DNA of 62,475 nucleotides, counting the filler, from Hausera hauseri (taxonomy: Eukaryota): assembly GCA_046269625.1 (NCBI GenBank). It is 10 parts of 10 records of this genome, joined end to end, with 100 filler letters (N's around TTAATTAATTAA, not from the genome) between each part and the next. Parts side by side here need not be neighbours in the genome. Positions count along the whole stretch, not along the records: positions 1 to 5,588 come from JBJURY010225187.1; 9 more parts are not named here. The stretch is one strand, 5' to 3'. Numbering within the stretch: position 1 is the stretch's first letter; each line of letters opens with the position of its first letter. Under the pieces are notes generated by a model. It worked only from the letters and a program-made list of their open reading frames with translations. It was not told the DNA's origin and ran no database searches. This document shows, piece after piece, positions 1-47,112 of the stretch. Made by a program: the position numbers and the translations under genes.

Positions 1-8
1 CAATGGCA

Positions 9-220
9 CAAAAAAATTTAAACAAAAATTATGAGGACTAATTTCGGATTCGCCCAATCGGAAAATAAGTACACATTCAGACATTGGAACAAAAAAATTT
101 AAACAAAAATTATGATTACTAATTTCGGATTCGCCCAATCGGAGGATAAAAAATGAGCACTCAATCCTGGATACTATATAATCACGGATTCACCCAACCG
201 GGGGATAATATACAAGTACA
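9..220. repeat. ~80-bp tandem repeat (2 copies plus a degenerate third), part of a dispersed terminal-type motif
   Basis: aaaaaaatttaaacaaaaattatga..actaatttcggattcgcccaatcgg at ~9-62 and ~89-143; cggattcacccaaccgg at ~185. Confidence 0.8.
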
Positions 221-1852
221 TCAATTCGTGAAATTCACTTTTGTTTAAACGCATCAATTTCTTTCCCTGGGGGGGTGGGGGTCTTGGTGCCATGTCCTCA
301 CTTCCTCCTACTTGTGATAAAAACTTACTCACGCAATTGTACTTGTACTATGTATGCTTATGATTCATGTAACTTTTTGATTGTATTTCTTAGTTTTTCT
401 TATCTTATTGTATCCTGAGATATTTTGTAATTTATTGACGATCATTAAACCTTGTTTGTTAAATCACGCTTTTGATTTTCGATAAACAAATACGTTTTGT
501 AATGAGGTTATTATTAGAAAACAAAACTAAGACCCACTTTTCTTTTACGATCATAAACAACCGTAGAACCACAAAAGCTTATAACTAGAGGGACGACACT
601 AGTGTTCCTCCCAATGTTCGAATTCACTAAGAATAAATAATCTATTATGCAGACCCACAGACGGCTTCTAAGATTGAATAAAAATTCCTCTTGGCTTAAG
701 TGAAGGAAGAACCTCAAACCATATATATAGATTTAAATAAGTATAAGTTTGAGGTTGAGAAACCCAAACTTTTCTAAACCTTTTAAACTCATCATGTGTC
801 CAACTTGAAATCTTAACACTGGTGTCCCGAGTAGGGGGCACGCTGGCTTTTGTGCAGATCCTAATAACGTACACGAAGCATACAACGCATATAACGCCGT
901 ATAAAATTTGTATTTGAAATAAAAATTAATCAATTCAATCAATTTTCCTTTTGCCTATAGCAATTATCATTTATTTACAATCACTAACCATATACAAAGT
1001 TTCATACACGATGGATCTCGAAGCGTATCATGATTTTGACCGTTCTTTTCAACTTGATTGTTAAAACATTCTTTTTGACAGGAGGTCTTGACAGATGAGG
1101 GGTCGTTGTGAGATATGCTGACATATTCGGAGATAAATCGGAATTGAGATGATTTTGATTGACGTCATTTGTAAATATTGTATGATTGTTTAATTGAGAT
1201 GGTATCGTATAAAGCATCGGGGTGTATTTATAGTCGTTCAGCATCATTAGAAGAGTATAGTTTGCTGTTTCGTCGTTAAGGAAACACGTTTCTGTATTTT
1301 CTTCATTCTTTGTCGATAGACGATCCTTAGATAGTCACATGTTCGCTACATACGGTGTCATCGAGCTCTTGTTTAGTGTGAGAAAAAAACACCTTTCTCC
1401 TCGTGACTCAATGTATGAAAATCCGAATCATAATATTGTTTCTACCTATGACTCAACCTGGTATTTATACTTGAAATGTTCAGCAATCCTTTTGGTTGCA
1501 AATGTTGTAAAAAAGGTCATTGTAGGAAGAATGTCACATGTCGGGGATAGTCTCTTCAAGATTGCTACCGCCGCTTAAAGTTGGATTGTCACCTCTGTTG
1601 AAAAATTATCTGCTCTTCTGTCGTACTGAATGAAATAAATTTCGAGATAGACGACTGCTGTATTCACTCAACCAGCATTTTGGTGAGGACACGAGTTGTG
1701 TCCGCGACCGCGGTACCACACTGGCTTCGTATTCTTTACGTAATAAACGTAAAGCACACGCTACTAACACAACCTCTGCTACAGATTCGGCAAGGAGCAA
1801 TTCCGAATCAGACGAAAACTCTCATCCTCAAATAGAAAACCAGAATCCAGAA

Positions 1853-2410
1853 ATGTCCTCAGGACTTGGACCCAGCTTAGGTAGCAACCTAAATGGAACC
1901 ATGGTGCTGCCTATGGATAAATATGAAGCTAAACCAGATTAGGACTACAGCGAATTCATCATGCAGTACGAAATATACTAGGAAAGTTTCAGTTGGACTG
2001 GTGAGCTTAAGATGAAGCGCCTTCCATTGCATCTTAAAGGTATCGCACTCAGTGCTTATACTCCAATAAAAGATGAAGATGACAAGGCTGATTGGGCTAT
2101 CCTTAAGGACGCCCTGGAAGAAAGACTCTTAGTAAACCCGTCAGGAAAGGGTCGAATGGGAGAGTTTAACAGGCGACGTCAAAGAAAAGGCAAAACCGTA
2201 CAAGAATTTGCATGTGCCCTTCAGAAACTGGTTCAAAGAGCCTACGCCGATGATGACATAAGGGAAGATGCCCTCCTGGCTCAATCTTGTTACGGTGTTA
2301 ACAGAGAAATTTAGAACTACATTATTGTCGCTGATCCGAATTTGTATAAAGAAGCCGTTAGTAAGGCTAGAAAAATTGAAGTTTGTGAGGAGGAATTTAA
2401 GCAAATATTA
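1853..2410 (+). pseudogene. gag: Retrotransposon gag (capsid) remnant
   Basis: MDKYEAKPD*DYSEFIMQYEIY*ESFSWTGELKMKRLPLHLKGIA aligns by eye with RYSGETTEFDDFMLVY...WNDKEKIKRLVAHLEGIA of the 1844-aa ORF. Confidence 0.8.
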
Positions 2411-4589
2411 ATGTTTAAATTTAATTCAAAGTTAAATCAATAAAGAGCCAATATAAAGTCAGGAAATTCAAGAAAGGATGAAAAGAAGAATCATTTAGTG
2501 AGTGAAGGAGACAATTGTTATATCAACTTTTATAATAAATATCTTATGGATAATTCAACTTTTCAATCATCAAGTGATGTAGAAGTCGGGATGGTAGAGA
2601 CGCGATCTACTTACAAAGTTAATTATGAGAGACTTAAAAACACAAAAAAGCATCCCAAAAATGGTAATAAAAAGCCAAAGAATTTTCAGCAGGAGAAAAA
2701 TTTTCAGAAACCCTTTGAAAAATATCAGTCAAACAAAGCAACAGCAGAAATAGTTACTTGGCAAAAGCAACCCAAGAAGCCGTCAATAAAAAGGCATCCG
2801 GTTAACCCAGATGGAAAACCGTTGAGTTTCGCGTGTCAAGAAACGGACACATGGCTCGTTCTTGCCATAATCAGGCACAATCCAGTCAAAATAAAAAGAA
2901 TGTGGGTATAATCGGAAACATATCTAATACGGATAAAAAACACGAAACTACGGATACGGAACCCAAAGATGCAATCTAAAAACTTCAGCGGAAAATTACA
3001 GCCAAGCTTAGGGAAAGCAAAACCAATGCAGTAGATGATGAAGATAAAGTGGCCGAGTTGAAACAGCTATATTTATCACTAAAAGAGCAGCAAACTTGTG
3101 AAAAAAGAAATAAGATGCTGAGTAAAAGCTCCATCATTACTCCAGTTGATAGACCCAAAAGTCTCCTGAGTCTGAATCAGAAACTGAAAAGAGAAGAGTC
3201 AAGAGAAAAGATAAACCTCTTGTACAAGAAGAGGAATTAAAAACTCACGAATTAAATTTACCTTCCGAAAGTGAATTTGCGAAAAGTGAATCTAGCAAAA
3301 TATGAACCAAAGGAAAGTTGAAAAGGATAAGAAGAAGAAAAGTAAAAGAACAGTCACCATAGTTCGACAGTTCACCCACAAATTTAGATCAGGACGGCAT
3401 AGAAATAGTTCAAAAAATGTTGAGCTACGCCAACCAAGAGTTAATTGATGGCACTCAGTTCAGACAGGACTTTTAGATGTTACTGTCACCCACAATTAGC
3501 CATCAACAATTTTCTAACTTATTGGACTTGCTGCTGATGTATGCTGCTGGCACAAGTTTATATCAAAATATTGTACGATACATAATTTACCGATATGCAG
3601 ATAGAGTGAGAATGGTTAAGGAAAATCCTGAAATAATAGGTACTCTTCAACAATATAATCAGGATTTCTGTGCGTTAAGAATGAAATCGTTGGACACGAT
3701 AGATGCATTAGAACATAGAGTTAATAAAATCAAACAGTCTCAGAAGAATTAGAATTACGTTTCTACAGACGAATATTGATGGATTACGAAACCTTGTGTG
3801 AAGTATGCATGTGGAAAAACAGGTACAATCCTGTATGTATTACCCATAGACAATCTGAACAAGCGATAGTCAATGAAATTATAACGAATGTTAGACGGAA
3901 AGAAATACAAGAAGTTGAACATCGGCATGAACCCAAACAAATGAAAGCCGGAGAAAATATTCCTATATATGAACAAATGCAAACAGACAAAGAACACGTG
4001 GAAGACTAAAAGGAACGACGAAACTCTATAAATTGAAGGGCAGAAAAGCCAAAGATGATGAAGGTGTTCGGCGATTGTTAACAACGGAAGATGAATATGA
4101 TGTAAATAATGTATCATTGACAACATTGCTACAAACTTTGTTAGCAAGAATGCATAATGCATTCGTTGAGTTTAATACTAATCTACGAATATCAGACTGA
4201 TTAATGCAAGTTATAAGGAATGAAATTACAAAGATTAGTGAGCAATTTGCAGACATCCATACGGACGACAGGATAAATGAAATCCAAGAGAGGGATATTC
4301 TGTCAAGAATGATGAAAACTGGCATATCTCGAAGTAAAATTGTAACAGTTATGTCCTATCTCCTGTATAAAATAATGGTATTGAACGCTGTTAATCCGAA
4401 CCAAGATGAGATAGCGAAAAACAGAAATTTTTACGAGAGCACTTAAGGCTAATGTTGAAGGATAGGTGAAATGCAGGGATCGGTGGATCAATAATCTAAT
4501 TCAGGCTACTATACCCGAATCGGTTACAGTGAGACAAATAAAAAACCCCCCACTCATCCAACAAGAAAGACAGCGAAACCAACAACCAA

Positions 4590-5213
4590 ACCTTGATCTG
4601 TCTTGGTTGGTTAAAATTATGCCCATACTCTTACTCTTCAGCATGATGCCAAAAACACTCAAGAATTACTTCTTCCGATTCCAGTCATGCCAAGGGGGCC
4701 CAATATATACTATATTAGATCTACAAAAATGTCCGCATGCCAACCCGACATCATTAACTACGATATCTAATAAAGAATTTTATGTGTACCAAGAATATGA
4801 ATTTGTGAAAACCAAAGTGAAGGAATGTCTTGTGTGGGAAACCACGTGCACTTCATCTGTTGTTTCTGGTGCAGAAATTCAGCCATAGTAGAACCAACGA
4901 CTCCGTTCGAACCACTTCCAATAAGTAGGCGGACGTGCATGGAAGCATTTGTTACAAAACTAATTAAGATTGGAATTATCTAGCTAAAGGCTCAAAAAGG
5001 AAAAATTATTAATAAAAGAATTTTTGTATCTGGCTCAGTCCACAAAACAGGATACTGCAAGGGAGAGTCATATGACATAAACGATGAAATACTGGACAAT
5101 GTGGTAGCTATTGAAGACTATCAAGTTGAGTTAAGGAAATACGATGCAGTCTTCGAAATATCATCCGGACAGATGATGAAATTCCACGAATGTGACTGTA
5201 GTGTCACGGTCTA
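4590..5213 (+). pseudogene. env: Envelope glycoprotein remnant (chuvirus G / class III fusogen-like)
   Basis: Hydrophobic DLSWLVKIMPILLLFSMM, then YTILDLQKCPHANP...FYVYQEYEFVKTKVKECLV; after a frameshift, GSVHKTGYCKGESY...LDNVVAIEDYQVELRKYDA. Confidence 0.7.
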
Positions 5214-5989
5214 AGTCATGGCCCTCCATTTCTGGCAACAGAGTCACCGTTTGGTCTATATTTCGTTTAGGAGACAAATATGGCACATTAGTGTCAAATA
5301 AAATCAATATTCGTATTTAGCTACTTCCCAGACTACCAATTATTCTGCCTTTTAAAATTTTACCGCCTATTACGTAATCGGCACTGAAATGCCTAGAGTT
5401 TAATTTGAAATTAACGAATGACAATACAAGCCAAACTAAAGCACTTACAGTACATAAAAAATATATATACATACCCATTGAATTTATCGGCCCTACATAG
5501 TCCTGCAAAATAAAAAATACGGAAGCTAAATTAAGTTCCGTAAAATTCCTAGATATTTACGGAAAAGAGTTTGACATGTGTCATTATCNNNNNNNNNNNN
5601 NNNNNNNNNNNNNNNNNNNNNNNNNNNNNNNNTTAATTAATTAANNNNNNNNNNNNNNNNNNNNNNNNNNNNNNNNNNNNNNNNNNNNAAAACAAAAATG
5701 AAATGTAATATTTACGTTTTTCAACAACAACAAAAATGCATTTTTTTTAAGATTAAAAAAATAAGCAGGTCAATCTTGTAAACATCTAAACCGTAGAAGG
5801 ACGGGTAACATAAAGTTTGATACTTCTGCACTATGACTGCTAAGTTTATTAAACGAAAACGAATATCCTACTTCAACAGGAACAAAATATTTATGATATC
5901 TCTAACACTGCCTTTTTTCAGTTTCAGAAATGCCAACTTACTGCAACATACAGTACAACGGAAATAAAATTCCAAAGCCACCATATTTT

Positions 5990-10609: not shown

Positions 10610-12693
10610 GAAATTTTATTCAGACTTCAAAATTAGCATTTTAACGGATGCTTTGAAGTTTTGTCATTCGTTTCAGGAGAAACCGCGCATTAGATTGAGA
10701 GTAAATGCCACAAAATTACGATTGAACGAAAAAGCCGTCGAAATTATTTTGGAAGTACATGGTCATTGTATTCGATAAATAGACCCGAAAGATGGGCGTA
10801 TTCCTTCGGTTTATTATTACAAAGATATTGAAATGATTTCCAGTGTCCGATGTCAGTTACGGGTTTATTATTGCATCTGATGGATTTGGTCGAATGCACA
10901 TGTTCTCTGTCCAAACCGAGATGCATTCATTCGTGTAGCAGCCGAAGAAGCAATGAACAAAATCGGCTGTACATTACACGAATCTAAAGATCCATTGTCC
11001 AAGGATTATTTTCTAGAATAGCGGATGGGTAAATACAGCCAAGACGAATACATCACTTCACATGCGTAATTTTACGTTCAAAAAGTGGTTCCTCACAAAC
11101 ATGGCTCAGATAATTCCATACAGAGGCTGCTGTGTTTGACAGAAACATGCCTTGTAGAACAAGATCCATAAACTTATATCCTCGTTACTCTGAGACCGTT
11201 GTGCGATATATTTGCCTTAATTCGTAATCCAGAAAAACCGCAAAAATTCATTATCGAATACGTTCAAGGAGTGGCTAGAACATACTTATCTACAGATCGA
11301 GATTCACTTTTAGCATCTTTACTTGTTGGTGCTCGTTCAATCGGTAATCGCGATGTATGTGTTGAAATGAAACCCACCGAACGTTGGTATCGATTTGGCC
11401 CGTTTATTGTGCCAGTTGAAGAAGAGGTTGAATCGCGGCATATGAAAATGATTCAACAAAAACCGGGGACCTTCTGCTTGTCAGGCACGCTTCAACAAAC
11501 ACCGTGTGGAATGAGATTCAGTGAGGCGGTCAACAAATTCAATGCCAACATACCACACAATGGACAATTGAATGTCGTTACACAAGAAGGTCCGTTTTCG
11601 AAAAATAAAGAACGATTGATAAAAGGAGCTTTGACAGCACTTATCAATAGAGAAGGCAATCAACCTGAGATTTCAGCGCATGAATTAGAAGCTCAATTTC
11701 ATTCCGTACGACGGTTGACAGCTTCGAAGGCTGGTTTCCAAGCATTTACACAAATAAATAAAATGTGCGAAACTCTTAGCAGGAAAGTCTTTCTGGCACT
11801 TCGTAGAAACGATGAAGCCGTTGCTCACTCTGCCATAACATGATCAATTCACTGATACAACTCATGCATGAAAACTATGATATACGACAGGAACAACTGA
11901 ACAAGGCCAGTATTATGTCAAGCGATGAGTTTTTAGAAAGTCTCATGGACATTTTTTCGCTTCATGTGCTACGTGGAACCGGCGCTTTGGATATCAGTGC
12001 AATGCTGGACTTTTCGACATTCACAATTTGACCACCATACTGTGAAACGTCCGAAGGTGACAGCTTTGATACTTTGCTGAAATTGGTTTCTGGTCGTAAT
12101 CGAGTTTTGTTTCGATTATTTCATCATCCGAGTATGGCAACTATGAAAGGTGTAGGTCTGATCATCCAAACTCTCGTTGATAAAGCGGATTCGGAAGTTG
12201 GAGATTCATTGCAAAGACTTACATTAGCAGAAGGCGTCTTACCGCAGCATTTATTGAGTTCAGTGTTTGCAAGAAGCAATGATCATCGTAGTCTGGCATT
12301 TTGTCAACTCAATCGTCAGCTTCTTTCATTATGGGTTTCTGGAAATATCGAAGCCTAAGACTTTTACGACGCGTTTTACCATTTTGTTTGACTTATCACT
12401 TAGACATTACCGATGAACCACCGATGTCATCGATTGACTATTTGTTCGTTAGAGATAATCTGTAAACAGCACCGGTGCATTGTTTGGAAACACAAAAGAA
12501 AAATGCCGAAGCATTACGAGCATTGGAAAAGAAATTAGATAACCTTTTGATGCACTGGCGATCAAAAATTGGTCTCAATATCAAACCAGTCTGTTTGAGG
12601 AAGCGACGAAAGCGCATAAAAGTCTAAGGTAATTGGAAGCTGTTCTTTTATGGCTTTTATCAAGATCATGCAAAACCCAATTTGATTTGGAAT
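10610..12693 (+). pseudogene. DNAJC13: RME-8/DNAJC13 N-terminal fragment, intronless, with stops and frameshifts (processed pseudogene)
   Basis: RLLCLTETCLVEQDP, STDRDSLLASLL, GNRDVCV, VRRLTASKAGFQAFTQ, YDIRQEQLNKAS, GTGALDISAMLDF, FRLFHHPS, LAEGVLPQHL all match RME-8; in-frame stops at ~11170, 11841, 12029, 12356. Confidence 0.9.
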
Positions 12694-15484: not shown

Positions 15485-16555
15485 CTAAATTGATAAGAAA
15501 AAAATGACAATGAATGGTTTGTTTTTTTTCATGGCTTTTTCTTCTATATTAATGCCGCTTGCTACCGCCACCCCATTTGCCAGGGCTTCTTCTAGCGTAG
15601 CCCCTTTTACTATCTTGGTAATAGCGGAGTGCTTCTTTGGCTGCTCTTCTACAAAGGCTTCTTCGGCGATCTCCTCTACCACGGCTTTGCCAGCTTCCTC
15701 GGACTCCTCTGCATCTTCTTCCGCTTCATCCGGCAGCGCCCGGCTGACCGCTTCTGATACGGATTCCAGTTCTGCTTCATTCAGCGGCGTATCGCCTTCG
15801 ACCTCTTCCGGCTCCTTTTCTGCTTCCTCTTCATCAGTTTTGGCTTTTTCTGCCACAGCCTTGACTGCCGCCGCTGCTGAATCTGCCGCAACTGCAGCGC
15901 GCCTTGCCGCCTGGCTCTTAACGGCAGCCGCCTTCTTCGGCGCTCCCGGACGATTGTCATACTTCTCCTGCTGAAGCGGTGTCAGCGGCTTATACTTCAT
16001 CTTAAGTTCCATCGCCTGATAGACATACTTGCCTTCACTGAACCAAAGGATCAGGTCATCGCATTCTTCCAGACACTCTGCAGTCATGCCCGCCTCATGA
16101 TACAGCTTCGCCAGCTCATACGCCCATTTTTCGACATACTCGGCTTTCTTAAAGTCTTCCAGCGCTGTGATCTGCTCTGTAAGCGGCGCGCCCTGCGCCT
16201 TCAATATCTTATACTTTAATATAAACTGGTTCGGATCTTTCGGAGCCAGTTTTACAAACTCTTCATAACAGTCTGATGCTTCCTCTATATCATCAATCTT
16301 CAATGCCAGCGTTCCCAGCCGGTATACAATCTTCCTGCTCCCGGGGGAACGGTCAAATGCAACGAATAAAATATCCCTGCTCTTCTGGAATTCTCCATTG
16401 TACTCATATATCTCGCTGACCGTATTCAGCATTGATGCATTTTTTACCCTTCGCCAGTCTATAGTATCTGCTATCTCCATAGCCTTTTTATACTGCTTTT
16501 GCTCCATGTGCTCGAGCATCTGCTCTGTCTTTACCCTATATTCATATTTATCCAA
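15485..16555 (-). CDS. Bacterial (Lachnospiraceae/Clostridia-type) TPR-like protein, 3'-truncated at a chimeric junction near 15530
   Basis: Intact ORF, much higher GC than its flanks; MDKYEYRVKTEQM...ADTIDWRRVKN...ECDDLILWFSEGKYVYQAMELK; GAGGTG Shine-Dalgarno 6 nt upstream of TTG at 16555. Confidence 0.85.
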   Translation of the reverse strand: MDKYEYRVKTEQMLEHMEQKQYKKAMEIADTIDWRRVKNASMLNTVSEIYEYNGEFQKSRDILFVAFDRSPGSRKIVYRLGTLALKIDDIEEASDCYEEFVKLAPKDPNQFILKYKILKAQGAPLTEQITALEDFKKAEYVEKWAYELAKLYHEAGMTAECLEECDDLILWFSEGKYVYQAMELKMKYKPLTPLQQEKYDNRPGAPKKAAAVKSQAARRAAVAADSAAAAVKAVAEKAKTDEEEAEKEPEEVEGDTPLNEAELESVSEAVSRALPDEAEEDAEESEEAGKAVVEEIAEEAFVEEQPKKHSAITKIVKGATLEEALANGVAVASGINIEEKAMKKNKPFIVIFFLSI

Positions 16556-16615
16556 ATCGCTCACCTCAAATTATTTATTCAAAAACTGATGTTATCTTAC
16601 ATTTTTACTTATATA

Positions 16616-25919: not shown

Positions 25920-26019
25920 NNNNNNNNNNNNNNNNNNNNNNNNNNNNNNNNNNNNNNNNNNNNTTAATTAATTAANNNNNNNNNNNNNNNNNNNNNNNNN
26001 NNNNNNNNNNNNNNNNNNN

Positions 26020-29000
26020 TCCTCATTGATTGTGTGATAATTTATAGCGTTTACGGCCGCTGCTATTTCAACTTTGTTATTTATTTTTAATTTTCCCTTC
26101 TTCGCCGCATCTCGGCATTGATCCATTGTTAATTCATGTGGTTCGTTCGGGGTGGCCATTAAAATATTTGTTGAATGTCGATGCATTTTTCCACAGTGCC
26201 ATTTCTTTATTTGCTTAGTTAACTTACATTCAAGTGCTTTCACTCGTATAAATCTATTTTCTTGATATATCCTATAATTTTTAGTACCTTCGAATATAAG
26301 TTTATCAGGCTCTGCATCTGGACATTTTTCTAGGTCTACAAGGGAGTACGAAGCTCCAACCGCTGGATAATCACAGTCATATGCTCGAAAACCATGGGTT
26401 CCTCGACACAAAATTACAATAAGTATAATTAACCATGTTAAATCATTAGTTCCTTGTCTAGGTAATGTACCACTAGTTAACCTTTGTACTCTAGTAAACA
26501 ATTCAGAAAGTTCATGTTCCCCAAGTCTATCTGTTCTGCTTCCCCTTTCTGATATTTTATTTTCAGTCTTTTGAGGCTTGTCAAAATTCAACAAATCATT
26601 CCATCCTCCAATTCGGTTTATATCTGGAGATATGTGTGTTTTTAAGATTTCTATGGCTACATCAAGGCTACTTTCTCTTTCTTCAATTGTATCCGCCGAA
26701 TTTTTAATTCTCATTGCCAAATATACTAAAATAGTAATAACTCTATCTTTTGTTAAACCTCCCGTCTTAATCCACTTTTGTATTATTTCACTATCCTCTA
26801 TAGGGTCTATCCGTCCTGGTAATTGTTCATTTTTCACTACTGTCTCTAATCGAACCAACGTTCGCTTTAAGTGACTTTCAATATCAAGAGTGAATGGCTC
26901 ATCCATTAATAGGTCATTTTCTACTGGAAATAGGGAATTATAAATTCTCCATAGAATGGGTTTAATTTGCCTTGTTTCAAGATCCATTATTCGAATTTCA
27001 CTTTTTCTTAGTGCTTTGGTTAGAGTATCAACTTTAACTTGCTCCCAAAGGTTTTTTCTTGGACGACCCTGCGGTCGCTTGTCAGTTTGAGTTGTTTCTT
27101 GTCTTGCTTGAAACATATCTAATATATCTTTTACATTAGCTTCATTAATTAAGTTTGATTGTTCTGTTTCTTGTAAAATATCACCGATAATTTGGCTTTC
27201 TCGCACCTTCAATCCTTCTGCCCGAACTGCTAGTTCAGGGACTGGTTGATCAATTTCCATTCTTTCTTGAGGAACTGGTGTCTGCATTTCTTCTTCAATA
27301 TCTAACCGTCGGATAGCCTCGTTTGATCCCAACACATTCTGTATGCGTTGTTCTAACTCTCTTTGCTTTAAATTTTCTCTGTCTGTCCAATTTTCTAAGT
27401 ATACTATAATAATTTCAGTTGGATCCATCCCGTCCATAATTCCTAATTCTATCCATGATTTTTCATAATTTAGGACAGTACGACCCATAAATGTCACTTG
27501 TTTTATTTGAATATTCTCGTCGTCATATTGTAATCTTATCGCTTCGATAGTTCCAACCATTGGTTCATCAACATTTATAGTAACTTGAAACTCACTAGTT
27601 TTATTTCTATATTTACCATATATATTTAGTTGCACTATTTCATTTTCCTCTAATTTTCTATTACTCATTCTTCTTTGGCCATATCGTTCCAATATTTCTT
27701 TTGCCATACTTGCTTCCAGTATGTGATCTGCGGCTTGTTTTACTAAAAACTTACGTATTCGAAGAAATCTTTCTCTGTCTTGGATTAACCAGTTCATAAT
27801 TCTATGCATCTTGTTTAGAACGAGTGTACAAACGTTCTCTTTATCACTGTTATTTAATAACATAGTTAGGTAATACTCAAACTGATCTTCCTCTGTTCGT
27901 ATCTCTTCGATTTCTACACCCGGACCAAGCATCATAATTCGAGGCATTTCTATGGTATCTCTCCCTTTTTGGCTCTCGTCGCCGTAGTTTTTATCAATAA
28001 TATTATTACCTTGATTATCATTACCAACTACGGGTTCATCGTAATTTACAAACCACGTATACATTCCTTGTATTCGTTTCATTTTATCCATCTTTACTTT
28101 GGTATTATTTATCAATCCTTTCGAACATTCTTTATTTTTTGTTTCATCGGCATGAACTTCTAAAGCATATTTATTTTCTTGATTTTTAACTAATACTGGA
28201 GACACATTTTCGTTGTCTCCACCTATCACATGGTAATTTTCTTTGGGTCGTTCCTGATTAACTAATGGTTCTTGAGTTGACCTTAATTTTAATTGTCTCT
28301 CTATTATTGAACTATCTATTCCATATCTTGTTAACATCATCCTTTTATCAACCTTCTCATACTCACTGTTTTCTTCGTCTTTTTCCGACTGAATCCAGTT
28401 ATCTAAAAATATCTGATATATCGAACTATCCAATCGCTCTAATATTTCTCGTAATTTTATAAGTAGCACCATCGATATTTTCATTTCAAATTTTATATTT
28501 AATTTATTAATACCCAGCATTCTTTTTACACATTCAATTTCTATTTCACAAACATTATTAAATCCTCTTAAATGTCGAATTCGTTTAACTTTTAATACAC
28601 TAAGTTCTTTACTCATGGGTACTTTTCTAAATTCGTTTATCGTCTTAATTATTTCATCGAAACAGTGACTACACTTATATCTTTGGAAAGTATTAATAGA
28701 TCGTCTGACCTTCAATCGTCTTTCTATTTCACTTTCCTCTTCTACATTTTCATTCAAACCACAACTTTCTGTTTTTGAAATTTGTTTCAGAAACGTTTCT
28801 AACTTCACTTTATTTATCTCAGTACTAGCCATATTTATCTGCGTTTCCGCATTCTCTTTAACTAATTTCGCGTCACTCACAATTTCATAATTCTGTAAGT
28901 CAACCTTTTTTGATAATTTTTTTGGATCCTTTAACTTCTCCAATCGTTTTCTTAAATCATGTTCCGATTCGTCTTCAGATTCTTCATCTTCTACCTTATC

Positions 29001-31502
29001 TTCTTCTCTAATCATTAAATATTGTTTTCCAAGCGCATTTATTTCGTTACAACCCACATTTTCAGATGTTTCCAAAGTGTTGACATCTATATCCTTCACG
29101 TTATCATACAATTTTATTCCTAATCCATCTGGTATACTCGCCTTTCCATTTATATCTATCTCATTAGCTTCTAAACATTCATTATTAATTTTCATCCGAT
29201 TCAGAACTTCCAATTCATTACTCATTTCTATATTTTCGATTTTAATCTTCTCAATTTTTCGAGGTACATTTAGAATATCAAGAGCCTCAACGCTCGATTC
29301 TTCCGTCAATTCATTATCGTCCATCCTTTTACTGGATTTAATGTAATTTCCAGAATCCGATTCTTCACCCGTCACTACATCCAAATTCATATTTGATTCT
29401 ATATTAATCAAAAAACTTTCGACATTATTTTCACTTTCCAATATTACCGTGCTTAAATCGGATTCGATAATCACATTTTCATCGTTTCCACTACTAAAGT
29501 CAGGGGATGGTGCATTTAAATGGCTTTCATTCAAATCATCTACAGTACAAATACTCTCATTTTTCAACAAGTTTTCAACATCCTTTAATATTGACACTTC
29601 GGTCAAATTTATTTCAACTGCATTTAATTCAACACACGGTTCATTTTCATCATCTTGACAATACCAGTTACTACAACTAGCTCCTTGTGAGCAATCACCA
29701 TATTTGCTTATAAATTTCCTCTCTTCAGATTCCCAAAATTTAAATGTTTCAACATCATCATCGCCATCCTGATTGGATTCTTCTTCTAAACAACCATATT
29801 CGCGCATCATCTGCTTAATACTTTTTATCTGTTCTGGATACTCGATTTTCCTGCAACAAGTATCACTCTTAGGTTTTTTCTTCAATTTCTTATTCTTTAC
29901 TCCAAACATACTAGCTTGATTTTCGTGTAATACTTTCAACCTATCTAATTGGGTACGCATCTCGTCCCTTTCGGCTCTCAATTGTTTCAATTCGAATTCT
30001 ACGTTTACATTATTCGAATTCTGGTAATTTTCAACATTGCTATCATAGTTTCCTCTTTGATTCCATGAATTTTCATAGTACCCATAATTCTCATAGTTCT
30101 CCGAATCATTCAATTGTGTTTCGGAATTCTGGTTATTTTGCATAAGGGTTAATTTATTATAAGTCACCAACAACGGACATTTCTTCCAAATATGTCCGAT
30201 TTGATTACAATGATAGCAAAATCTATTTTCATTCATCGTACTTACCTGAGTTGGACAGGTTCGAGCTACATGTCCCCATTGTGCACAAATATTGCATTGC
30301 TTAGGTTGTTGAATATAAGGTGGCATTAATACCGGCATTCTTTTAACCTCTGGGCAAGACTTTGCAACATGTCCAAATTTCTTGCATTGGTTGCACTGGA
30401 TTGATCCTCTGTAATTAACTTTATCCCTTTCTAACGCCATTGCTTGTTGTGGTGTAGTTTGTGATCGAAGAGGGTATCGTTTTTGCTGTTCTGGAGGGTT
30501 GATCCATTGTGTTCTATTCAAATTTGCTCCAGCGGCCATGTCTTTAACAGGGGTACTCATTCTTTGTGGTTGTAAGTTTGCTCTTATAGGTGATCTTACG
30601 GTATTTGGGTCAATATTAGGAAACAAATTTTGATTTACGTTCTGGTTAGTGCCAACATTCCAACGAGGCGGGCCCCAACGTGGTATCGAGGGAACTTGCC
30701 AACCGGCCTGTCCATATGACCACGACGGAGTCCGCCACGCTTGGTTAGTCGTCCTGAAATTTCGATTAGGGTTTTGCTGTCTAAAATTACTATTTGAAAT
30801 TTGGTTGCTATTAAGGGAGTTTTGATTAATTTGGTTTAGTTTATTCTCTACATTTTCAAAATTTATGGCTTTTCTTATTAGTTCACTCAGAGTAGAGACG
30901 TCACTTTCAATCAATTGTCTCTGTAGCTTGGGGCTATTAAGTCCAGTGATAAAACAATCTATTAAGATAGGCTCCAATGCGAAAACCTTAGGCGCACCTT
31001 TATCTTCTTTAGCAGTATCTTCCTTCTCCAGTGCTTCCTTATAACGTTTACCAAGTAGTTGAAGGGCAAAAGCAAATTTATTAACAGATTCTCCCGGCAG
31101 TTGGACTCTGGACCGTAAACTTCTTAGTTTTGCATTTGAAGATGGATCGGGATCCAAGTTCTTTCTAAATACATCGACAAATTTATCCCAACTCATTTTC
31201 TCCTTTTCCTCAATTTGTAGATAGGCTTGTAGAGCGATTCCCTCCAAATGTGCAACCAACCGTTTAATTTTCTCCTTATCATTCCACTCTAATCCGTCCG
31301 CTTGCGCCGCGTATACTAACATAAAATCATCAAATTCCGTAGTTTCCCCAGAGTAACGTCCTAAATTTAGGTTTGCAAAAGTGGACATCCTCTGTACTTG
31401 AAAATGTTTAAGCTCTTCTATAGGGGTAATAGCACTATTTTCAGTAACCTTTCTTATAATGTTTTCACTTACTACTACCTTTTCGTCCAGTGGCCTCTTC
31501 AA
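26020..31502 (-). CDS. Gag-Env fusion polyprotein (>1820 aa, cut by the contig end): capsid, 3 CCHC knuckles, acidic/coiled-coil region, ubiquitin-like domain, AT-hook, internal signal sequence, chuvirus-G-like ectodomain
   Basis: Uninterrupted ORF; first ATG at 31388; CNQCKKFGHVAKSC, CNICAQWGHVARTC, CYHCNQIGHIWKKC; KRPQGRPRK; WLIILIVILCRGTHG/FRAYDC...YSLVDLEKC...IYQ...ALECK...HCGKMH. Confidence 0.88.
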
Positions 31503-31542
31503 CTTATTAGCCAGACCAAGAGATTTTAAATTTGAAAATCAG

Positions 31543-31560
31543 GTCCTGGCGTGGTCGCCA
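31543..31560 (-). promoter_or_regulatory. Primer-binding site (probably tRNA-Arg)
   Basis: TGGCGACCACGCCAGGAC, 18 nt complementary to a tRNA 3' end (...GUCCUGGCGUGGUCGCCA), just upstream of gag. Confidence 0.8.
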
Positions 31561-31568
31561 AAATTTTA

Positions 31569-32720: not shown

Positions 32721-34595
32721 TCATGGTGAGTCTAATATAATTTGATTAGTCCAGGAAGAAAAATCGTCAAATAAGGATCGGTTGGGTTTTGGTGCAGAAG
32801 CGGGTTTCTGAGAGCATCTACCGGGTGGTGAGGTATCCATATCCGGGGTATCGCTTGTTTTTGATTGGCTTGATAGTATAGAATCTGAAATGGTGGTATC
32901 ATCTGCACGTAATAAGTGGTTAGCACTGATCGTAATTTGAGATATCTGAAGGGTTTTTTGTGCTTGATGGTGAAAAGCATTGAGTGGTAATAATTTCATG
33001 TCGGGGCTATCAGCATCCGTCGGTACGCGAGAAAATGACAAGGGATAATCAGATGGTGGATTTTCGAGGAAAGAAAGGTGCTCCCAACTGCATTGTGGAA
33101 TTGAAGATATGGATGTATGCGGTAGTGTAGTTACCAAGTTAGACAGGGCTTGTGGACGCCACGGAGGTAGGAGCCAGTTAAAACGGCGTCTTTCCTTGTA
33201 GATATCGTGGACTATGAATATCATGTTTTCAGCGTCCATTTTACCTGGTATAAAATATTCAATTGATTTGTATATTACGGAAAAGGGTTTAAAGCCATTC
33301 TGGCTATAGTTAAGGTCAATATATCCTAGTAATAAGTTGGGTGAAAGGTGCCAAAGGTTTAGGAAGTAGAGTGGATCGAAAGTAACCAATATTCTGCCAT
33401 ATATGGCACGTTGAACATGAGCTCTACAAAGAGCGAAATCTGGTGCGTGTTCCAGATCATCTAGAGATATACTATGGCAATGTTTGTCCACATTATCGAT
33501 CTTTTCTCTAGGACGAACAAATGTCTTGTATTTTATTTTAAGTGGTCCATCAGGATCGACATTAAGATCACCCAGGTAGATGTGAATTAATACAGGGAGG
33601 CTGCCAGAAAATGCTACGGCATAGCCGGCAAAAATAATTCCCTGGATAGAGTATGAATAAGGTGTCCGAACATAGGAATGTGTGGAAGGACTCGGGGGTT
33701 GGGGAAGCCAGTCGAGCTCATTTAAGGACATTTTTCCATTAATTGATGCATCTAGGTAACGGCGCCAAGCTGGAGTATCTACATATTCTAGTTCTACATA
33801 CGTAACCGAATTCTCCCTCATTAGAATAGTAAAGGTATGTGAACTCCAGACATCTGCTGTCAAAAGAATAGATTTGAATGGAGATAAGTATACTTTAAAT
33901 ATGGGTAGGGGTGGTCTGTGGATCTCTAATACGATAGATCCTTTAATAACCGACACGAGCATATCTTTTGGTTGCGATGGGAAGTTCTGAATGGAAAATT
34001 GTTGGTCTAAGATTTGTCGCATGGGGTATGGCCCATAATTGTGTGACCAATAAGAAATTAATATGCAACGGTCTTGCAGGCTATTATTTTTGAATTTATT
34101 CGGGATTGTGAAGACAGAGGGGTATTTAAGTGTAGTGTTACGAAGTGATATATCGAAGCGTATAGACCGATACGTGGATCTAGAACGTAAGACCTCAAAA
34201 AGGAAAGGAATAGATAATCCTTTAGGCAAAGAAATGGGTAAACGTGGCATTTGTTGAAGATTGGCAAATTGAATACTTTGTCCGATATTACGGATCGGTG
34301 GGGCATGCATTAAAAAATAGGAAGTATTGGGATAAGACGTAGAAACGAGAGGTAAAAGAAGTAAGGGAGAACGGATTGTATCCATAGTTTGCTCGACGGA
34401 TGCTTCATCACTCTCAACACGGATAATGGACTGCACATAGGTTGCTGACTGGGAGGATATTGATGTCATACGAGGATATCTGTCTTTACGGATACAATAA
34501 TTTACTGGAATCACCTTGATACTTGATTGAACTAAAAAAATAAAGTGGGTGTTAGACCATTGTGCCCAAGCCTGAAAGCAATAGGCCGTGGCCAA
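32721..34595 (-). CDS. Retroelement-associated protein of unknown function (624 aa; first ATG at 34469)
   Basis: Long intact ORF immediately downstream of the 445-aa ORF and integrase; no recognisable motif. Confidence 0.65.
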   Translation of the reverse strand: MATAYCFQAWAQWSNTHFIFLVQSSIKVIPVNYCIRKDRYPRMTSISSQSATYVQSIIRVESDEASVEQTMDTIRSPLLLLPLVSTSYPNTSYFLMHAPPIRNIGQSIQFANLQQMPRLPISLPKGLSIPFLFEVLRSRSTYRSIRFDISLRNTTLKYPSVFTIPNKFKNNSLQDRCILISYWSHNYGPYPMRQILDQQFSIQNFPSQPKDMLVSVIKGSIVLEIHRPPLPIFKVYLSPFKSILLTADVWSSHTFTILMRENSVTYVELEYVDTPAWRRYLDASINGKMSLNELDWLPQPPSPSTHSYVRTPYSYSIQGIIFAGYAVAFSGSLPVLIHIYLGDLNVDPDGPLKIKYKTFVRPREKIDNVDKHCHSISLDDLEHAPDFALCRAHVQRAIYGRILVTFDPLYFLNLWHLSPNLLLGYIDLNYSQNGFKPFSVIYKSIEYFIPGKMDAENMIFIVHDIYKERRRFNWLLPPWRPQALSNLVTTLPHTSISSIPQCSWEHLSFLENPPSDYPLSFSRVPTDADSPDMKLLPLNAFHHQAQKTLQISQITISANHLLRADDTTISDSILSSQSKTSDTPDMDTSPPGRCSQKPASAPKPNRSLFDDFSSWTNQIILDSP

Positions 34596-34604
34596 CTTTA
34601 ATTG

Positions 34605-35969
34605 TCATAATATAGTTGTATAAACACTATCGGTTTGTCTATTTACAATCTCGCCGGGCACGAAATAATTCAAATTAAAGTTAACATCATATTGTGGTAC
34701 ATTTTCATATTCGTTTAAGTGTTCTATATAAAATGTCTCATTGGATTTCTTAAGATACACAGCAAGTGAAAAGCATATTATGATTGCTATACCTGAAATT
34801 ATGATTACGACCACCCATATATAAAAGAGGGCAATTGAAGTTTTTCTTAGGTCTACAAACGTACTAGTTGTTGAAGTAGGCATACGTGTAAAGAAATAGA
34901 AAGTGAACTTTTGTTTCCAGTTTGAAAAATTTGGAAAGAATGGCATGGGCTTCTCCACAAGTTTAGTAGTTATAAAATGTGTTACCTTATTCCCTTGGAT
35001 AGATAAATTTAAGGGGAATTGATTAGATACAGATTTAATGGTTGTAGTCAAACGATTTAATTTCGTAGATATATGTTGTAAGTTTAACGTGGCAACTTTT
35101 GGTTTTATCCAGGGTGATGACCTAGAAGAAAATAAATGCTTCAAATTTATGGTAGTATTAATTATGACACGATGCGAGGGATCTATCAAAACAACAAACT
35201 GGATCCTACACACAGAAGGTCGAAAATGAATATCTTCTTTCTTTAATATTATAAGTCGAGGGGATGAGGGTCCCACAGTCACCAACCAATGCTTCCCTAT
35301 ATATGTAGCTTCCAACACTGGGGGGTTCCATCGAGTTCGTAAAGTATCAATAAAGGAATAAGGGATTGCTTTCCACAAAAATGATCCTGATGTATATAAA
35401 GATTGAACAGGGGGAATTAACCAGTCGTGTATAAAATATACATTCGTCTCAGATATCGGAATAGTAATTCTGATCCATGTTGGCTTGTTGTAGGATATTG
35501 GAAAACGTGGTAAATCAAGGGACAATTTTGGGGTAACTGTCCTTCTAGAAAAATTTAATCTGATTCCTTCAATTTGTACCAAGACTCCAGATTGTCCCTC
35601 AGTCCATAAATACTGATAAGCCAAGAATGGTTCTCTGAAAATTCGAAACGAAGGTGTTTGTAAAGGTGGTGTTTCCCACCTATCAACTATTGTCGTTGAG
35701 TATGGATCAAGAAAGGCGAAGGTTTGCTGCACTGTAGGTTTGTCCACGGGGTAAAAACATGCTCCACCAGGCGATTCAATTGTACAAAGGCCAAGAAATT
35801 CTATTGACCGGTTATTCCAGATATGAAATATTAAAATTTTAACAGTATTAGTTGTATGAGGAATATTTGTATGTAAATAAGTTATCTGGTTTTGATGTCT
35901 CCATCCCATATATATCGCTGGTCGACATTCGTAAATTTTCAAGCAACAAATTAGGGTAAAAAATGTTGC
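34605..35969 (-). CDS. Type I membrane protein in the env position (~450 aa)
   Basis: Signal-like ATFFTLICCLKIYEC with no ATG, N-glycosylation sequons (NRS, NFS, NTT, NLS), TM segment IALFYIWVVVIIISGIAIIICFSLAVYL, Tyr-motif tail. Confidence 0.7.
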   Translation of the reverse strand, partial: ATFFTLICCLKIYECRPAIYMGWRHQNQITYLHTNIPHTTNTVKILIFHIWNNRSIEFLGLCTIESPGGACFYPVDKPTVQQTFAFLDPYSTTIVDRWETPPLQTPSFRIFREPFLAYQYLWTEGQSGVLVQIEGIRLNFSRRTVTPKLSLDLPRFPISYNKPTWIRITIPISETNVYFIHDWLIPPVQSLYTSGSFLWKAIPYSFIDTLRTRWNPPVLEATYIGKHWLVTVGPSSPRLIILKKEDIHFRPSVCRIQFVVLIDPSHRVIINTTINLKHLFSSRSSPWIKPKVATLNLQHISTKLNRLTTTIKSVSNQFPLNLSIQGNKVTHFITTKLVEKPMPFFPNFSNWKQKFTFYFFTRMPTSTTSTFVDLRKTSIALFYIWVVVIIISGIAIIICFSLAVYLKKSNETFYIEHLNEYENVPQYDVNFNLNYFVPGEIVNRQTDSVYTTIL

Positions 35970-36019
35970 CTATGAGATACGATTTTTAAATCATATAGAG
36001 CAGGCTGGTAGATTAATAT

Positions 36020-36812
36020 CTGTTACTTTTTTATATCTTTCTTTCTATCCTCCGGTTGTGTTATTTCTGGATTTTTGTTTTTCGATATAGGTTGAGAAGC
36101 CAATTTACACCATTCTGCTGCTAAACAAACAAGTTCATTACGTTTCCCTACATTCTTTTTAATAAAAATATTGTTATCTGTAACTCGCTCGACCTGGTAT
36201 GGTCCTTTCCATAGATTAGTTAGCTTAGGTAATAAACCTTTTTTGTTACATGGTTATAAACCATTACCCAATCATCTGCTTGAATTTTGTGGGGTCTAGA
36301 ATATTTATCATACTGCCTTTTATACGGTTTTTGATAATCTAATGTCAATGATTGAGCTAAGGCCCAAGCTTTCGTTAATTTTTCCTTTAGATAATTTACA
36401 TAATCTGGTTCACTTTTTGTCAATGCTTCATTTGGTATAAATTCTAAATCTATGGGTAGTAATGGTTCTCTTCCGTACATCAAAAAAGGAGATTTATGTG
36501 TTTCCGTATGTGGTGCAGATCTCAAGGCAAACATGCAGGCTGGAATAAATAGGTCCCAATCATCTTGTCAATCGTTTGTTACTGTTGCCAACATTGATAA
36601 TAATGTTCCATTTAGTTTTTCTACCATTCCATCTGTTTGTGGGTGATATGCAGCGGTTTTAAGTTTATATATCGTGAACAATTTGCACACTTCTTCAAAC
36701 ATGCGATTTATAAATTCTCTTCCTTGATCAGTTAATATTTTTCGTGGAGCACCATACCGAAAAACTATTTCTTCAACAAACAAAGCTGCGACGGTGAATG
36801 CCGTCTTATCAG
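36020..36812 (-). pseudogene. pol: Ty3/Gypsy integrase C-terminal part
   Basis: RYGAPRKILTDQGREF, YHPQTDGMVEKLN, SPFLMYGREP, WKGPY; in-frame stop at 36568 and a frameshift near 36240. Confidence 0.92.
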
Positions 36813-45780: not shown

Positions 45781-47112
45781 TAGAGGAAAAATGGGAGTTC
45801 TGACACAGGTACACAACTTCATCCATTAATTAAATTGATGCGTTAAAACAAAAGTCAATTTAATGATTGGGTGAATTGGAATTGATACTTATTTGCATTC
45901 CCCCTTGGGTGAATCGGAATTTATTCGCCGTCACATGAGGTCATTTAAGGATTATGAACAACATATTTCGAACAACAATATTTTCGTAGTGTTTTATAAA
46001 TGTCCTTGGCCGGTAGTTGAATTTGAAAGTGCTGAAATGGCTTTTGAAAATTTTCTTTTGTTGAAAAATTTTCACTTTCTTGTCATCGTTCCTGGGATGT
46101 TTATTTACATTTTCCAATCTTTCATAATTGACTACAATTTTCCTGGCTTTGCTGACAGCTTCTTTATAAGTGACAGGATCATAACAATCATATAATTCTG
46201 AATTTCTGAGGTTACTCCATAACATAACTAAGCTAAGGGAGCGTGTTCTCTTATGTCTTTATCTGCGTAAGCTCTCTGAACCAACGTCTGAAGGACCCAT
46301 GCATACTGTTGCACGGTTTCGTCTTTTCTCTGACGTCTCCTGTTGACTTTTCCAATTAGACCCTTTCCTGACGGGTCTACCTAGAGCCTATCCTTCAGGG
46401 CCTCTTTAAGGCTATTCCAATCAGCTTTATTATCTTCTACTTGTGTATAAGCACTGAGTGCTATTCCTTTAGGATGAAGTGGACGGCGTTTTATACTGAG
46501 CTCGTCTGTCTATCCGAAGCTTTCTGAGTATATTTAGTACTACGTCAGGAACTCCCTATAATCCTGATCTGGTTTGTCTTCAAAATTGTCCATTGGTAAA
46601 ACCATTGTTGCACGTAGCTTGCTACCTAAACTGGCACCCAATCCTGAACTACGCATTTTTAGATTTTCTTCTGTTTCAGAGTCGCATGGGCTTCTTGCCG
46701 AATCCGTATTCTCAACTCTATTATTTATAGGGTTTCATCTACTTTGTAAATGATTCATCAGCGTACCTCGTCACTCACGACAATGGATCGAGAAGAAAAA
46801 GTGTGGCCTATGAACATTATTGTATTAACTGTAAATATAACAATGTATATATTATTGATTTCCTTATATATTTCTACAAATAAATATTTTACTCTGTCTT
46901 ATTTTTTTATCTCCATTGGCCTTGACATGAAATGATCTCATGTGACGGAGGGATGGAGTAAGTACAAGTTCCGAATACGCAAATCGGAGGAAAAGGAATA
47001 AGTACCAATTCCGATACACCCAATGGTCAAATGAATTTTTGTTTTAACGCATCATTTTAATTAAAAGAGGGGTGGGGATATGGGTTGATACCATGTCCTC
47101 CTATCTAACTAC
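45779..47112 (-). mobile_element. Gag fragment bracketed by ~170-bp imperfect inverted repeats
   Basis: Gag pseudogene at ~46040-46710 is a close relative of 1771-2410; the repeats share aaatga.ctcatgtgacgg...ttcc.at.cacccaa...tttgttttaacgcatca. Confidence 0.7.

Follow-up and report, generated by a model that had tools for sequence, protein, structure and literature searches.

A window of 62,475 nucleotides, joined from ten records of the Hausera hauseri genome assembly, contains two diverged elements, A and B, in which gag is followed by a stretch X and then by env. This locus raises the question of whether the gag–X–env order, without pol between gag and env, is an inherited layout, and of what X is and where pol belongs. 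A and B very probably are 5′ pieces of Burro-type Ty3/gypsy elements (Metaviridae) from two divergent families, elements that encode one giant gag–env–pol polyprotein.

Two colinear elements with gag, X and env

The family of the decayed element A is represented by P0004, an unbroken database protein of 1130 residues, which is identical to A in 695 of 1019 aligned residues distributed over 7 HSPs, and relative to which A carries 11 stops. The B ORF encodes, in order, Gag (PF03732), three CCHC knuckles, a long spacer, a probable SUMO-like domain, an AT-hook-like motif, a predicted Bcl-2 fold, a signal, and the start of env. It was originally described as 1844 residues long, but this count starts at a TTG at 31502 and extends into the TTAATTAATTAA contig spacer, where it meets a stop that is not a natural end. 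Since the stop falls in the artificial spacer, the end of B is open, and its sequence breaks off ~120 residues into env.

Families A and B are ~21–33% identical. The B ORF matches A in the capsid (1943–2428, E 2e-13) and in the signal and env start (4580–4828, E 4e-8), and P0004 aligns with B in a single HSP from residue 275 to 938 (E 6e-30). The original prediction that A is colinear with B holds for the capsid, the middle block at the end of X, and the signal with the env start, each of which matches significantly, so that the similarity extends well outside the capsid; all of the quoted peptide pairs are present. It holds in part for the knuckle, of which a remnant is present in A, but the knuckle-containing segment does not match B significantly (30 of 200 shuffles reach the score). 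A weak match of B 1293–1339 to A 2489–2629 (1 of 200 shuffles) is out of order and was dismissed as chance. The distance from knuckle to env is 3.7 kb in B and, as predicted, ~1.7 kb in A, and there is nothing pol-like between gag and env in either element. The part from gag to env is short in family A, 810 residues in P0004. Because the gag–X–env layout is common to two families with ~21–33% identity and to further database relatives, it is older than the family split and not a one-off deletion.

The gag of B matches PF03732 (E 9e-6) and continues into three CCHC knuckles, whereas family A has a capsid and one knuckle only, recognized in P0004 by PF00098 at residues 197–212 (E 2.5e-4). The extra stretch of A between the capsid and the knuckle is partly common to C, a third copy (blastn, 2617–2716 to 46133–46035). 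Candidate primer-binding sites precede both gag genes; that of B is presumably tRNA-Arg-like, and the window contains no tRNA gene. No long repeat pair (LTRs) was found around A or B within the contigs of 5.6 and 10.8 kb, and neither LTR ends nor a polypurine tract was identified. In a collapsed-LTR test of the B contig, which used contigs only, the non-coding stretch before gag had low, not doubled, depth and there were no clear loose ends.

The hydropathy peak at the position of the env leader is also present in P0004, B, and eight of ten further long relatives, and hydropathy places a leader ahead of env and an anchor behind it. In B and P0004, env shares its reading frame with gag; its position upstream of a protease was seen in relatives only. 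In the env tree, A and B belong to an unresolved group of 18 rows (84/85).

Table 1 Features of the elements and their surroundings in the window.
Feature	Position	Strand	Basis and remarks
A, decayed element	1856-5211	+	Contig 5.6 kb
A, candidate primer-binding site	1681..1695	+	Starts TGG, after ATTT as in B
A, Gag capsid, decayed, 3 stops	1856..2428	+	E 2e-13 to B; 80% to P0004 residues 4-187
A, extra ~370 nt from capsid to knuckle, absent from P0004	2408..2775	+	Gap between HSPs
A, single frameshifted CCHC zinc-knuckle remnant	2822..2870	+	Three-frame translation; coordinates approximate
A, helical domain, then probable ubiquitin/SUMO-like domain (~3630-3800), decayed	3390..3800	+	Coordinates mapped from P0004
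A, position of AT-hook-like motif, altered in A	3994..4014	+	Motif count
A, predicted Bcl-2-fold domain (middle block)	4117..4500	+	Interrupted by stop codons and a frameshift
A, hydrophobic env leader (internal signal sequence)	4595..4660	+	Comparison with B; hydropathy
A, N-terminal third of chuvirus/gB-type env, decayed, cut short	4661..5211	+	PF24664 E 1.3e-6, profile positions 95-201 of 653
B, unbroken ORF from first Met	26020..31388	-	Contig 10.8 kb, open at contig end
B, env leader and first 120 env residues	26020..26450	-	PF24664 E 3.9e-16
B, predicted Bcl-2-fold domain	26577..26966	-	Single-sequence model
B, probable SUMO/ubiquitin-like domain	27369..27686	-	ESM Atlas
B, candidate primer-binding site	31545..31560	-	Just upstream of gag; sequence only
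627-aa ORF	34604-32721	-	ORF
454-aa ORF, C-terminal membrane helix	35969-34605	-	ORF
Decayed integrase end	36810-36104	-	42-43% to P0008, P0022, P0048; PF00665 E 6.5e-5
C, third, shorter family-A capsid copy	46035..46650	-	74% nucleotide identity to 1859-2382; 66% to P0004

Position of pol

Neither copy can show the absence of pol, because the match of A stops within env and the B ORF ends on a spacer stop. The similarity of A to env is lost at ~5200–5211, and ~380 nt of unrelated DNA lead to the contig end. No pol was seen on any sequence of family A or B, and P0004 itself ends inside env. Word-indexed, insensitive searches with the env half of P0004 (lengths 621–1978) matched only P0004, and those for the 3′ part of B matched none of 1216 candidates.

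The likely position of pol can be read from relatives. A phmmer search gave 46 hits; Pfam was run on 22 of them and on 2 cluster members. The other 24 hits have at most 370 residues, and one of them (P0023) was also scanned. Env and pol domains occur together in 9 of the 24 scanned proteins, and pol is downstream of env, in the same frame, in all nine and upstream in none; P0006 and P0048 fall in one 90% cluster, and the protease of P0007 is below the cut-off. Gag or a knuckle, env and protease are combined in P0007, P0010 and P0044. Five of the nine (P0008, P0022, P0025, P0044 and P0048) contain RT, RNase H and integrase in the Ty3/gypsy order PR–RT–RH–IN, with no match to dUTPase; none of the five belongs to family A or B, and the window shows only an integrase end, which was the sole match of pol queries from four relatives. 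P0005 contains a Bcl-2-like domain, env and protease in this order. Since the Bcl-2 profile has no match in eight of the nine pol-bearing relatives, the link from Bcl-2 through env to protease rests on P0005 and the literature. We infer that A and B had pol after env, hidden by truncation in A and by the contig end in B. The reading of the layout as an old lineage trait stands, and it can be extended: X is identifiable, and what is seen most likely represents the leading part of a gag–env–pol element. Pol between gag and env, which had been named as a finding that would overturn the original prediction, was sought in the wrong place; both copies end inside env.

The integrase end and the two ORFs upstream of B, on the same strand (32721..36810), probably form the 3′ terminus of another Burro-type element. 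A leader and membrane segments follow the integrase in all four relatives with a long tail there; the 454-aa and 627-aa ORFs have no sequence match to these tails. The 627-aa ORF has what we take to be the look of a DEDD exonuclease, and it matched nothing in Pfam or PDB.

Alternatively, A and B may be truly pol-less gag–SUMO–Bcl2–env elements of high copy number, for which a helper would supply RT and integrase; this could be the integrase-bearing element positioned head-to-tail before B. Together they would form a two-part endogenous retrovirus-like system, in which the capsid, SUMO-like, Bcl-2-fold and fusion proteins provide particles and protection from cell death, and which is copied in trans. 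We consider this unlikely. It agrees with the lack of pol sightings in families A and B, which is uninformative for the two window copies because both end inside env, and with the Bcl-2–env proteins P0003 and P0012, which stop at or shortly after the env anchor, but whose ends may reflect breaks or the limits of contigs. Contigs that are 85–100% alike (run X1) cover the B region to great depth, which does not give a copy number. P0005 runs from Bcl-2–env into protease, pol follows env in every relative that has both, and Burro consists of exactly such a front half with pol (PMC6431247).

Relationship to Burro and other env-bearing elements

The published layout of the planarian element Burro/GYPSM1 is Gag–CCHC–SUMO–BCL2–Env–PR–RT–IN in one ORF, with three CCHC knuckles, a SUMO-like PF11976 domain, BCL-2, an in-frame env, and PR (PMC6431247). 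The elements described here resemble it in Retrotrans_gag, CCHC knuckles, the BCL2-like domain and env in one frame, and probably in a SUMO-like domain (PF11976); the env of Burro/GYPSM1 matches mononegavirus-type fusion proteins, and decayed copies are known there too (PMC6431247). Of the features that define Burro/GYPSM1, retrotrans_gag with two to three CCHC knuckles is present in B, family A having one knuckle, and a BCL2-like domain is located just before env. Further defining features are PR–(dUTPase)–RT–RNase H–IN after env within one ORF of ~5000 residues, an element of more than 25–30 kb with paired LTRs, a place in the Burro clade by RT phylogeny, and a triclad host; the window contains no RT. 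Differences from Burro/GYPSM1 are the short gag-to-env part of family A, pol not seen in the A and B copies, and MATH, BIR, RING, ankyrin, SMC and dUTPase, which were not seen in A or B. MATH, BIR/RING and ankyrin had no Pfam match in B or P0004 and may lie in the missing part; such accessory parts vary among Burro elements (PMC6431247), and ankyrin is present in the relative P0048. Relatives contain several protease domains (up to six stretches in P0048) and, behind the integrase, a membrane module, neither of which is mentioned for Burro in section 7 of PMC6431247. The odd gag–Bcl-2–env order is real yet already described, and A and B are divergent relatives of known planarian elements. A specialist aware of Burro would not be surprised, since the gene order is published, and the primary Burro papers may already describe these points.

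GAG–ENV–POL order with HSV/gB-type env is reported for errantiviruses of Nematoda, Bryozoa and Platyhelminthes in the accessible part of PMC13524379. The likeness extends to env before pol, a class III env, and motifs shared by the family-A env with the S. mediterranea 'C1a' rows; a difference is that the main text names neither Bcl-2 nor SUMO nor Burro and leaves the gag–env interval undescribed (PMC13524379). In the available rows of the eLife env supplement, the P0004 env motifs YQES and TGES occur in S. mediterranea only (4/4 and 3/3 occurrences), in elements that span 14.5–18 kb; this comparison was made by eye and motif search. Anakin-type BEL/Pao elements are also LTR elements with a chuvirus-type glycoprotein, here PF24664, as far as the accessible text of PMC7642597 describes them, whereas the gag and pol here are of Ty3/gypsy type and env is in frame before pol.

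It is very unlikely that A and B acquired their Bcl-2-like gene and their env of chuvirus type independently, outside the Burro lineage. Such convergence would suit the non-monophyly reported for GAG–ENV–POL elements in the accessible part of PMC13524379, and an RME-8 piece of the window that is closest to scallop (57%) and 40% identical to the sole flatworm among the matches listed. However, the RME-8 tree does not settle the branching among window, scallop and flatworm (67/74) and includes no planarian, and the piece is on another contig. The order of the probable SUMO-like domain, BCL-2 and env is as in Burro, B has three knuckles as in S. mediterranea (PMC6431247), and the P0004 env motifs are common only to S. 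mediterranea among the supplement rows available.

X ends in a predicted Bcl-2-fold domain

The middle block at the end of X is a Bcl-2-fold domain according to structural models. Residues 1522–1611 of the B ORF match window positions 4120–4374 with a Smith–Waterman score of 72 (z 6.5), which none of 200 shuffles reached. A profile built without family-A sequences found two places at i-E <1 in the six frames of the window, B itself and A, the latter at 4222–4413 with i-E 3.7e-5. In a Foldseek search with the B model, all rows belonged to the Bcl-2 family (best E 4.9e-3), and in VIA its best 25 rows had the Bcl-2 fold (top Z 8.7, rmsd 3.5, 111 aligned). The best eight VIA rows of the family-A model were Bcl-2 family members (Z 9.6, rmsd 2.9, 110 aligned), and unrelated helical rows reached up to Z 8.6 on a different part of the model. 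For a domain built of helices, such scores are modest (Foldseek E >0.001). Profile A2 matched Bcl-xL best in PDB, across BH1–BH2 (E 2e-4), and PF00452 gave sub-threshold matches at the corresponding position of P0003, P0018 and P0024 (E 7.7e-5 to 2e-3) and P0023 (E 0.012). The chance that the middle-block match arose at random among helical, biased sequences, X being unrelated filler, is negligible: the quoted 18-residue piece alone is within shuffles (21/200), and the B block alone, as a single sequence, matched nothing in Pfam, PDB or ESM Atlas, but the 90-residue match exceeds all shuffles, the family-A-free profile finds A, seven relatives keep the block and its GW directly before env, and two independent AlphaFold models give Bcl-2 folds.

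X probably also holds a SUMO-like domain. The B segment has no Pfam match; its third-ranked ESM Atlas match, after two unnamed ones, is the PF11976 cluster, with a score of 0.90 and 131 of 256 features in common. The P0004 stretch that aligns with this segment is modeled as strand-strand-helix-strand-strand, a partial beta-grasp pattern, with pLDDT <50 in the second half. The SUMO-like domain is absent from the listed fold-search rows for the two-domain model. The GRP core of the motif that we take to be an AT-hook, a label with no library match behind it, is present in P0004, B and four further relatives.

The BH1 motif NWGR is required for BH3 binding. Aligned with Bcl-xL, none of the seven rows that cover this column has NWGR. 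In the BH2 motif W-x(4)-GGW, G and W are invariant in all eight rows, the GGW being kept in P0004 and B, and the first W is present in seven (D in B). The domain appears to have a Bcl-2 fold that does not match the canonical pro-survival type at NWGR, and BH3 binding is putative. We regard it as a captured module that these elements can do without, and its most likely effect would be to dampen host cell death or innate signaling during particle formation; since NWGR is not kept, an anti-apoptotic role in particular is predicted with even chances. The best structural matches of both models are viral Bcl-2 proteins (ASFV A179L, canarypox CNP058, KSHV Bcl-2, EBV BHRF1 and iridovirus GIV66), from which the domain differs in its position inside a retroelement polyprotein, the lack of BH1 NWGR, and its predicted anchoring by the env leader. 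A literature search for Bcl-2 domains in LTR elements, which most subscription papers lay outside, gave the Burro review only.

Proposed topology and implications

The analysis supports the gag-to-env order for A, B and P0004, the assignment of the Bcl-2 fold and of the env family, and env followed by pol in relatives. Based on these, the polyprotein may be ordered as Gag, CCHC knuckle(s), variable spacer, SUMO-like domain, AT-hook-like motif, Bcl-2 fold, signal, class III Env, membrane anchor, protease(s), RT, RNase H, integrase, and often a second leader/membrane module. Such a polyprotein would be threaded through the ER membrane. The internal signal would direct Env into the lumen, and the C-terminal helix of Env would halt transfer and place the protease, RT and integrase back in the cytosol, so that no frameshift or splicing would be needed. 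After signal cleavage, the leader may stay as a C-terminal membrane anchor 40–60 residues behind the Bcl-2 domain, resembling the tail anchor of cellular Bcl-2 proteins.

The membrane-threading model is offered for gag–env–pol polyproteins. The compact, divergent families indicate that the SUMO–Bcl2–env cassette is old and was kept across families that are only ~21–33% alike, and sister families that dropped the Bcl-2 domain provide a natural series of gain and loss. Fold-level support for Bcl-2, together with the loss of NWGR, makes the idea of interference with host apoptosis (PMC6431247) testable on a small unbroken domain; in the accessible part of PMC13465017, an IAP part of Burro1 is linked to the same idea. 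The same part reports Burro as planarian-only. It is possible, if somewhat doubtful, that the Burro-type elements with a Bcl-2 domain found here belong to a non-planarian host; in that case, the reported range of Burro would widen.

Colinearity of elements A and B

The window is made of short animal contigs linked by N-TTAATTAATTAA-N spacers; two of the contigs carry the decayed element A and the long open reading frame B (Table). The colinearity of the two elements, correctly spotted in the original prediction, is real and represents the front part of a known type of giant element. All the peptide pairs quoted for A and B are present. The capsid of A matches that of B with an E-value of 2e-13, and the signal plus the start of env with 4e-8. 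The middle block, which is the C-terminal domain of the region between gag and env, matches over about 90 residues (ORF residues 1522-1611 versus window positions 4120-4374; score 72, z 6.5, 0 of 200 shuffles), whereas the 18 residues originally quoted, taken alone, were reached by 21 of 200 shuffles. When the last 425 residues of B were compared with 1.84 billion representatives, 46 matches were obtained, among them P0004, an intact 1130-aa protein of the family of A. P0004 is identical to A in 695 of 1019 aligned residues (7 HSPs, 11 stops in A) and aligns to B in a single HSP (residues 275 to 938, E 6e-30). This HSP and the matches of B to A show that the two elements do have their domain order in common.

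Pol queries from four relatives had no match between gag and env of A and B, in agreement with the predicted lack of pol in this gap. The predicted 1844-aa ORF starts at a TTG, and its stop lies within the spacer; hence, B is open at the contig end, which cuts its env (about 620 residues in full) after about 120 residues. In A, the similarity to env ends at approximately 5200-5211, and the DNA beyond this point is unrelated. Since both copies are cut inside env, neither reveals what comes after it.

Features of the window
Feature	Position	Strand	Remarks
Element A	first contig, 1-5588	+	decayed
Reference ORF B	contig 26020-36812, first Met 31388	-	
Two long ORFs after the integrase end	32721-35969	-	454 aa with C-terminal membrane helix; 627 aa
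RME-8/DNAJC13 match	10611-12693	+	~690 residues; intronless, frameshifted; not on the contig of A or B
361-aa ORF	15485-16570	-	unbroken, higher G+C, bacterial look
Three repeat copies	18675-20200, 49636-53230, 58594-61893		decayed, 75-84% alike
Transposase fragment, presumably mariner-like	25415-25963	-	
Transposase fragment, presumably hAT-like	42511-42876	-	
BEL/Pao gag	57115-58221	-	PF03564, E 4e-12

Domains between the knuckle and env

The AlphaFold model of the middle block of B, calculated from a single sequence, has confident helices. All the Foldseek matches listed for it belong to the Bcl-2 family (best E 4.9e-3), as do the top 25 rows of a wide structural search (best Z 8.7, rmsd 3.5, 111 aligned). 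The model of the family-A stretch also resembles the Bcl-2 family (Z 9.6, rmsd 2.9, 110 aligned). For a helical domain, such scores are only moderately high. The sequence evidence agrees with the predicted fold: four relatives have Pfam Bcl-2 matches below the cut-off, each at the homologous position; the best PDB match of an eight-row profile was Bcl-xL (E 2e-4, spanning BH1-BH2); and the only matches in the window of a profile built without family A are B and, at 4222-4413 (i-E 3.7e-5), A. The GW of BH2 is invariant in the aligned Bcl-2-like rows. The NWGR of BH1 is not kept in them, which makes classical BH3 binding uncertain, with the chances about evenly balanced as judged from this motif.

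Upstream of the Bcl-2 fold, B probably contains a SUMO-like domain, which is a lead only. The ESM Atlas places this segment with the PF11976 cluster (0.90), a Pfam scan of it gave no match, and the aligned family-A stretch has a partial beta-grasp pattern in its model. B, P0004 and four relatives contain a GRP motif ahead of env, which we take to be AT-hook-like. The env of both A and B is a chuvirus-type fusion glycoprotein (PF24664).

Position of pol in related proteins

The Pfam scan covered 22 of the 46 matches and two cluster members; the remaining matches are at most 370 aa long. Nine of these 24 proteins combine env and pol domains, with env ahead of pol in every case, and five (P0008, P0022, P0025, P0044 and P0048) contain reverse transcriptase, RNase H and integrase. 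In P0005 a Bcl-2-like domain is followed by env and protease; the Bcl-2 profile had no match in the eight other pol-bearing relatives. Like this lack of Bcl-2 matches, three further observations speak against a simple picture: the Bcl-2-env proteins P0003 and P0012 stop close to the env anchor, a search for A- or B-family sequence extending into pol found none, and the env tree does not resolve the branching among these rows. A reading of A and B as the pol-less part of a two-part system is nevertheless very unlikely.

The related polyproteins P0048, P0008, P0010 and P0005 have repeated aspartic-protease domains and a C-terminal leader plus membrane module. P0048 contains six protease stretches, some C-terminal to integrase. 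By eye, P0025 residues ~110-290, before env, resemble an exonuclease fold, at the place that SUMO and Bcl-2 take in others; Pfam gave no match there. In the database protein P0016, a mitochondrial ribosomal protein L47 domain is fused to the beginning of an env of this family, probably a gene-calling chimera.

The contig of B also contains, upstream of B and on the same strand, the decayed end of an integrase that shares 42-43% identity with pol-bearing relatives. Toward B it is followed by the membrane-protein ORF, the 627-aa ORF, 1.15 kb of non-coding DNA, a candidate primer site and gag. Because the relatives also have leader-plus-anchor modules after integrase, this region has the appearance of the 3' end of a comparable element arranged head-to-tail with B. 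Contigs aligned over that of B did not prove a shared LTR. The 627-aa ORF contains a stretch that, we presume, resembles a catalytically dead DEDD/REX4 exonuclease; it had no match in Pfam or the PDB. DEDDy exonuclease ORF3s are described from rotifer LTR elements (PMC5408684).

Probable relationship to Burro and proposed mechanism

According to PMC6431247, the front of Burro/GYPSM1, giant gypsy-like elements of planarians, comprises retrotrans_gag, two or three CCHC knuckles, SUMO-like PF11976 and BCL-2, followed by in-frame env and then PR-RT-RH-IN in an ORF of ~4,900-5,100 aa; a third species has decayed copies. GAG-ENV-POL elements with gB-type env, described from nematodes, bryozoans and flatworms in PMC13524379, are not monophyletic according to that paper. 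In its env table, two P0004 env motifs occur in S. mediterranea rows only (4/4 and 3/3 occurrences, others being possibly masked in gapped rows), and these rows resemble P0004 along their whole length by eye. We infer from their size that they are Burro elements. Burro1 is cited as planarian-specific and anti-apoptotic via its IAP part in PMC13465017. A and B would work like Burro and are likely members of it, as judged from features other than pol, LTRs or a tree.

A single polyprotein would be cut by its own proteases and signal peptidase. In most long relatives, hydropathy indicates a leader ahead of env and an anchor at the C-terminal side of env. Env would pass into the lumen of the ER while pol would return to the cytosol, and the cleaved leader would tether the Bcl-2 domain to the membrane; cellular Bcl-2 proteins attach through a tail anchor. 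The domain would be an optional accessory that most likely counteracts cell death or innate signalling in the host.

Other contents of the window

The RME-8 piece is probably a processed pseudogene. With a scallop it shares 57% identity, compared with 49-54% for insects and crustaceans, 47% for fish and 40% for a parasitic flatworm. In a tree from a set without planarians, insects and crustaceans form a group that excludes the piece (98/93), and the piece, scallop and flatworm form an open fork. A planarian host is compatible with this tree and, in view of the env, likely. The 361-aa ORF, presumably TPR-like and of gut Firmicutes type, shares one contig with animal-like DNA, which points to contamination, chimera or transfer. 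The three repeat copies presumably represent a Polinton/adintovirus-like family-B DNA polymerase region. An apparent ubiquitin-like stretch precedes the BEL/Pao gag.
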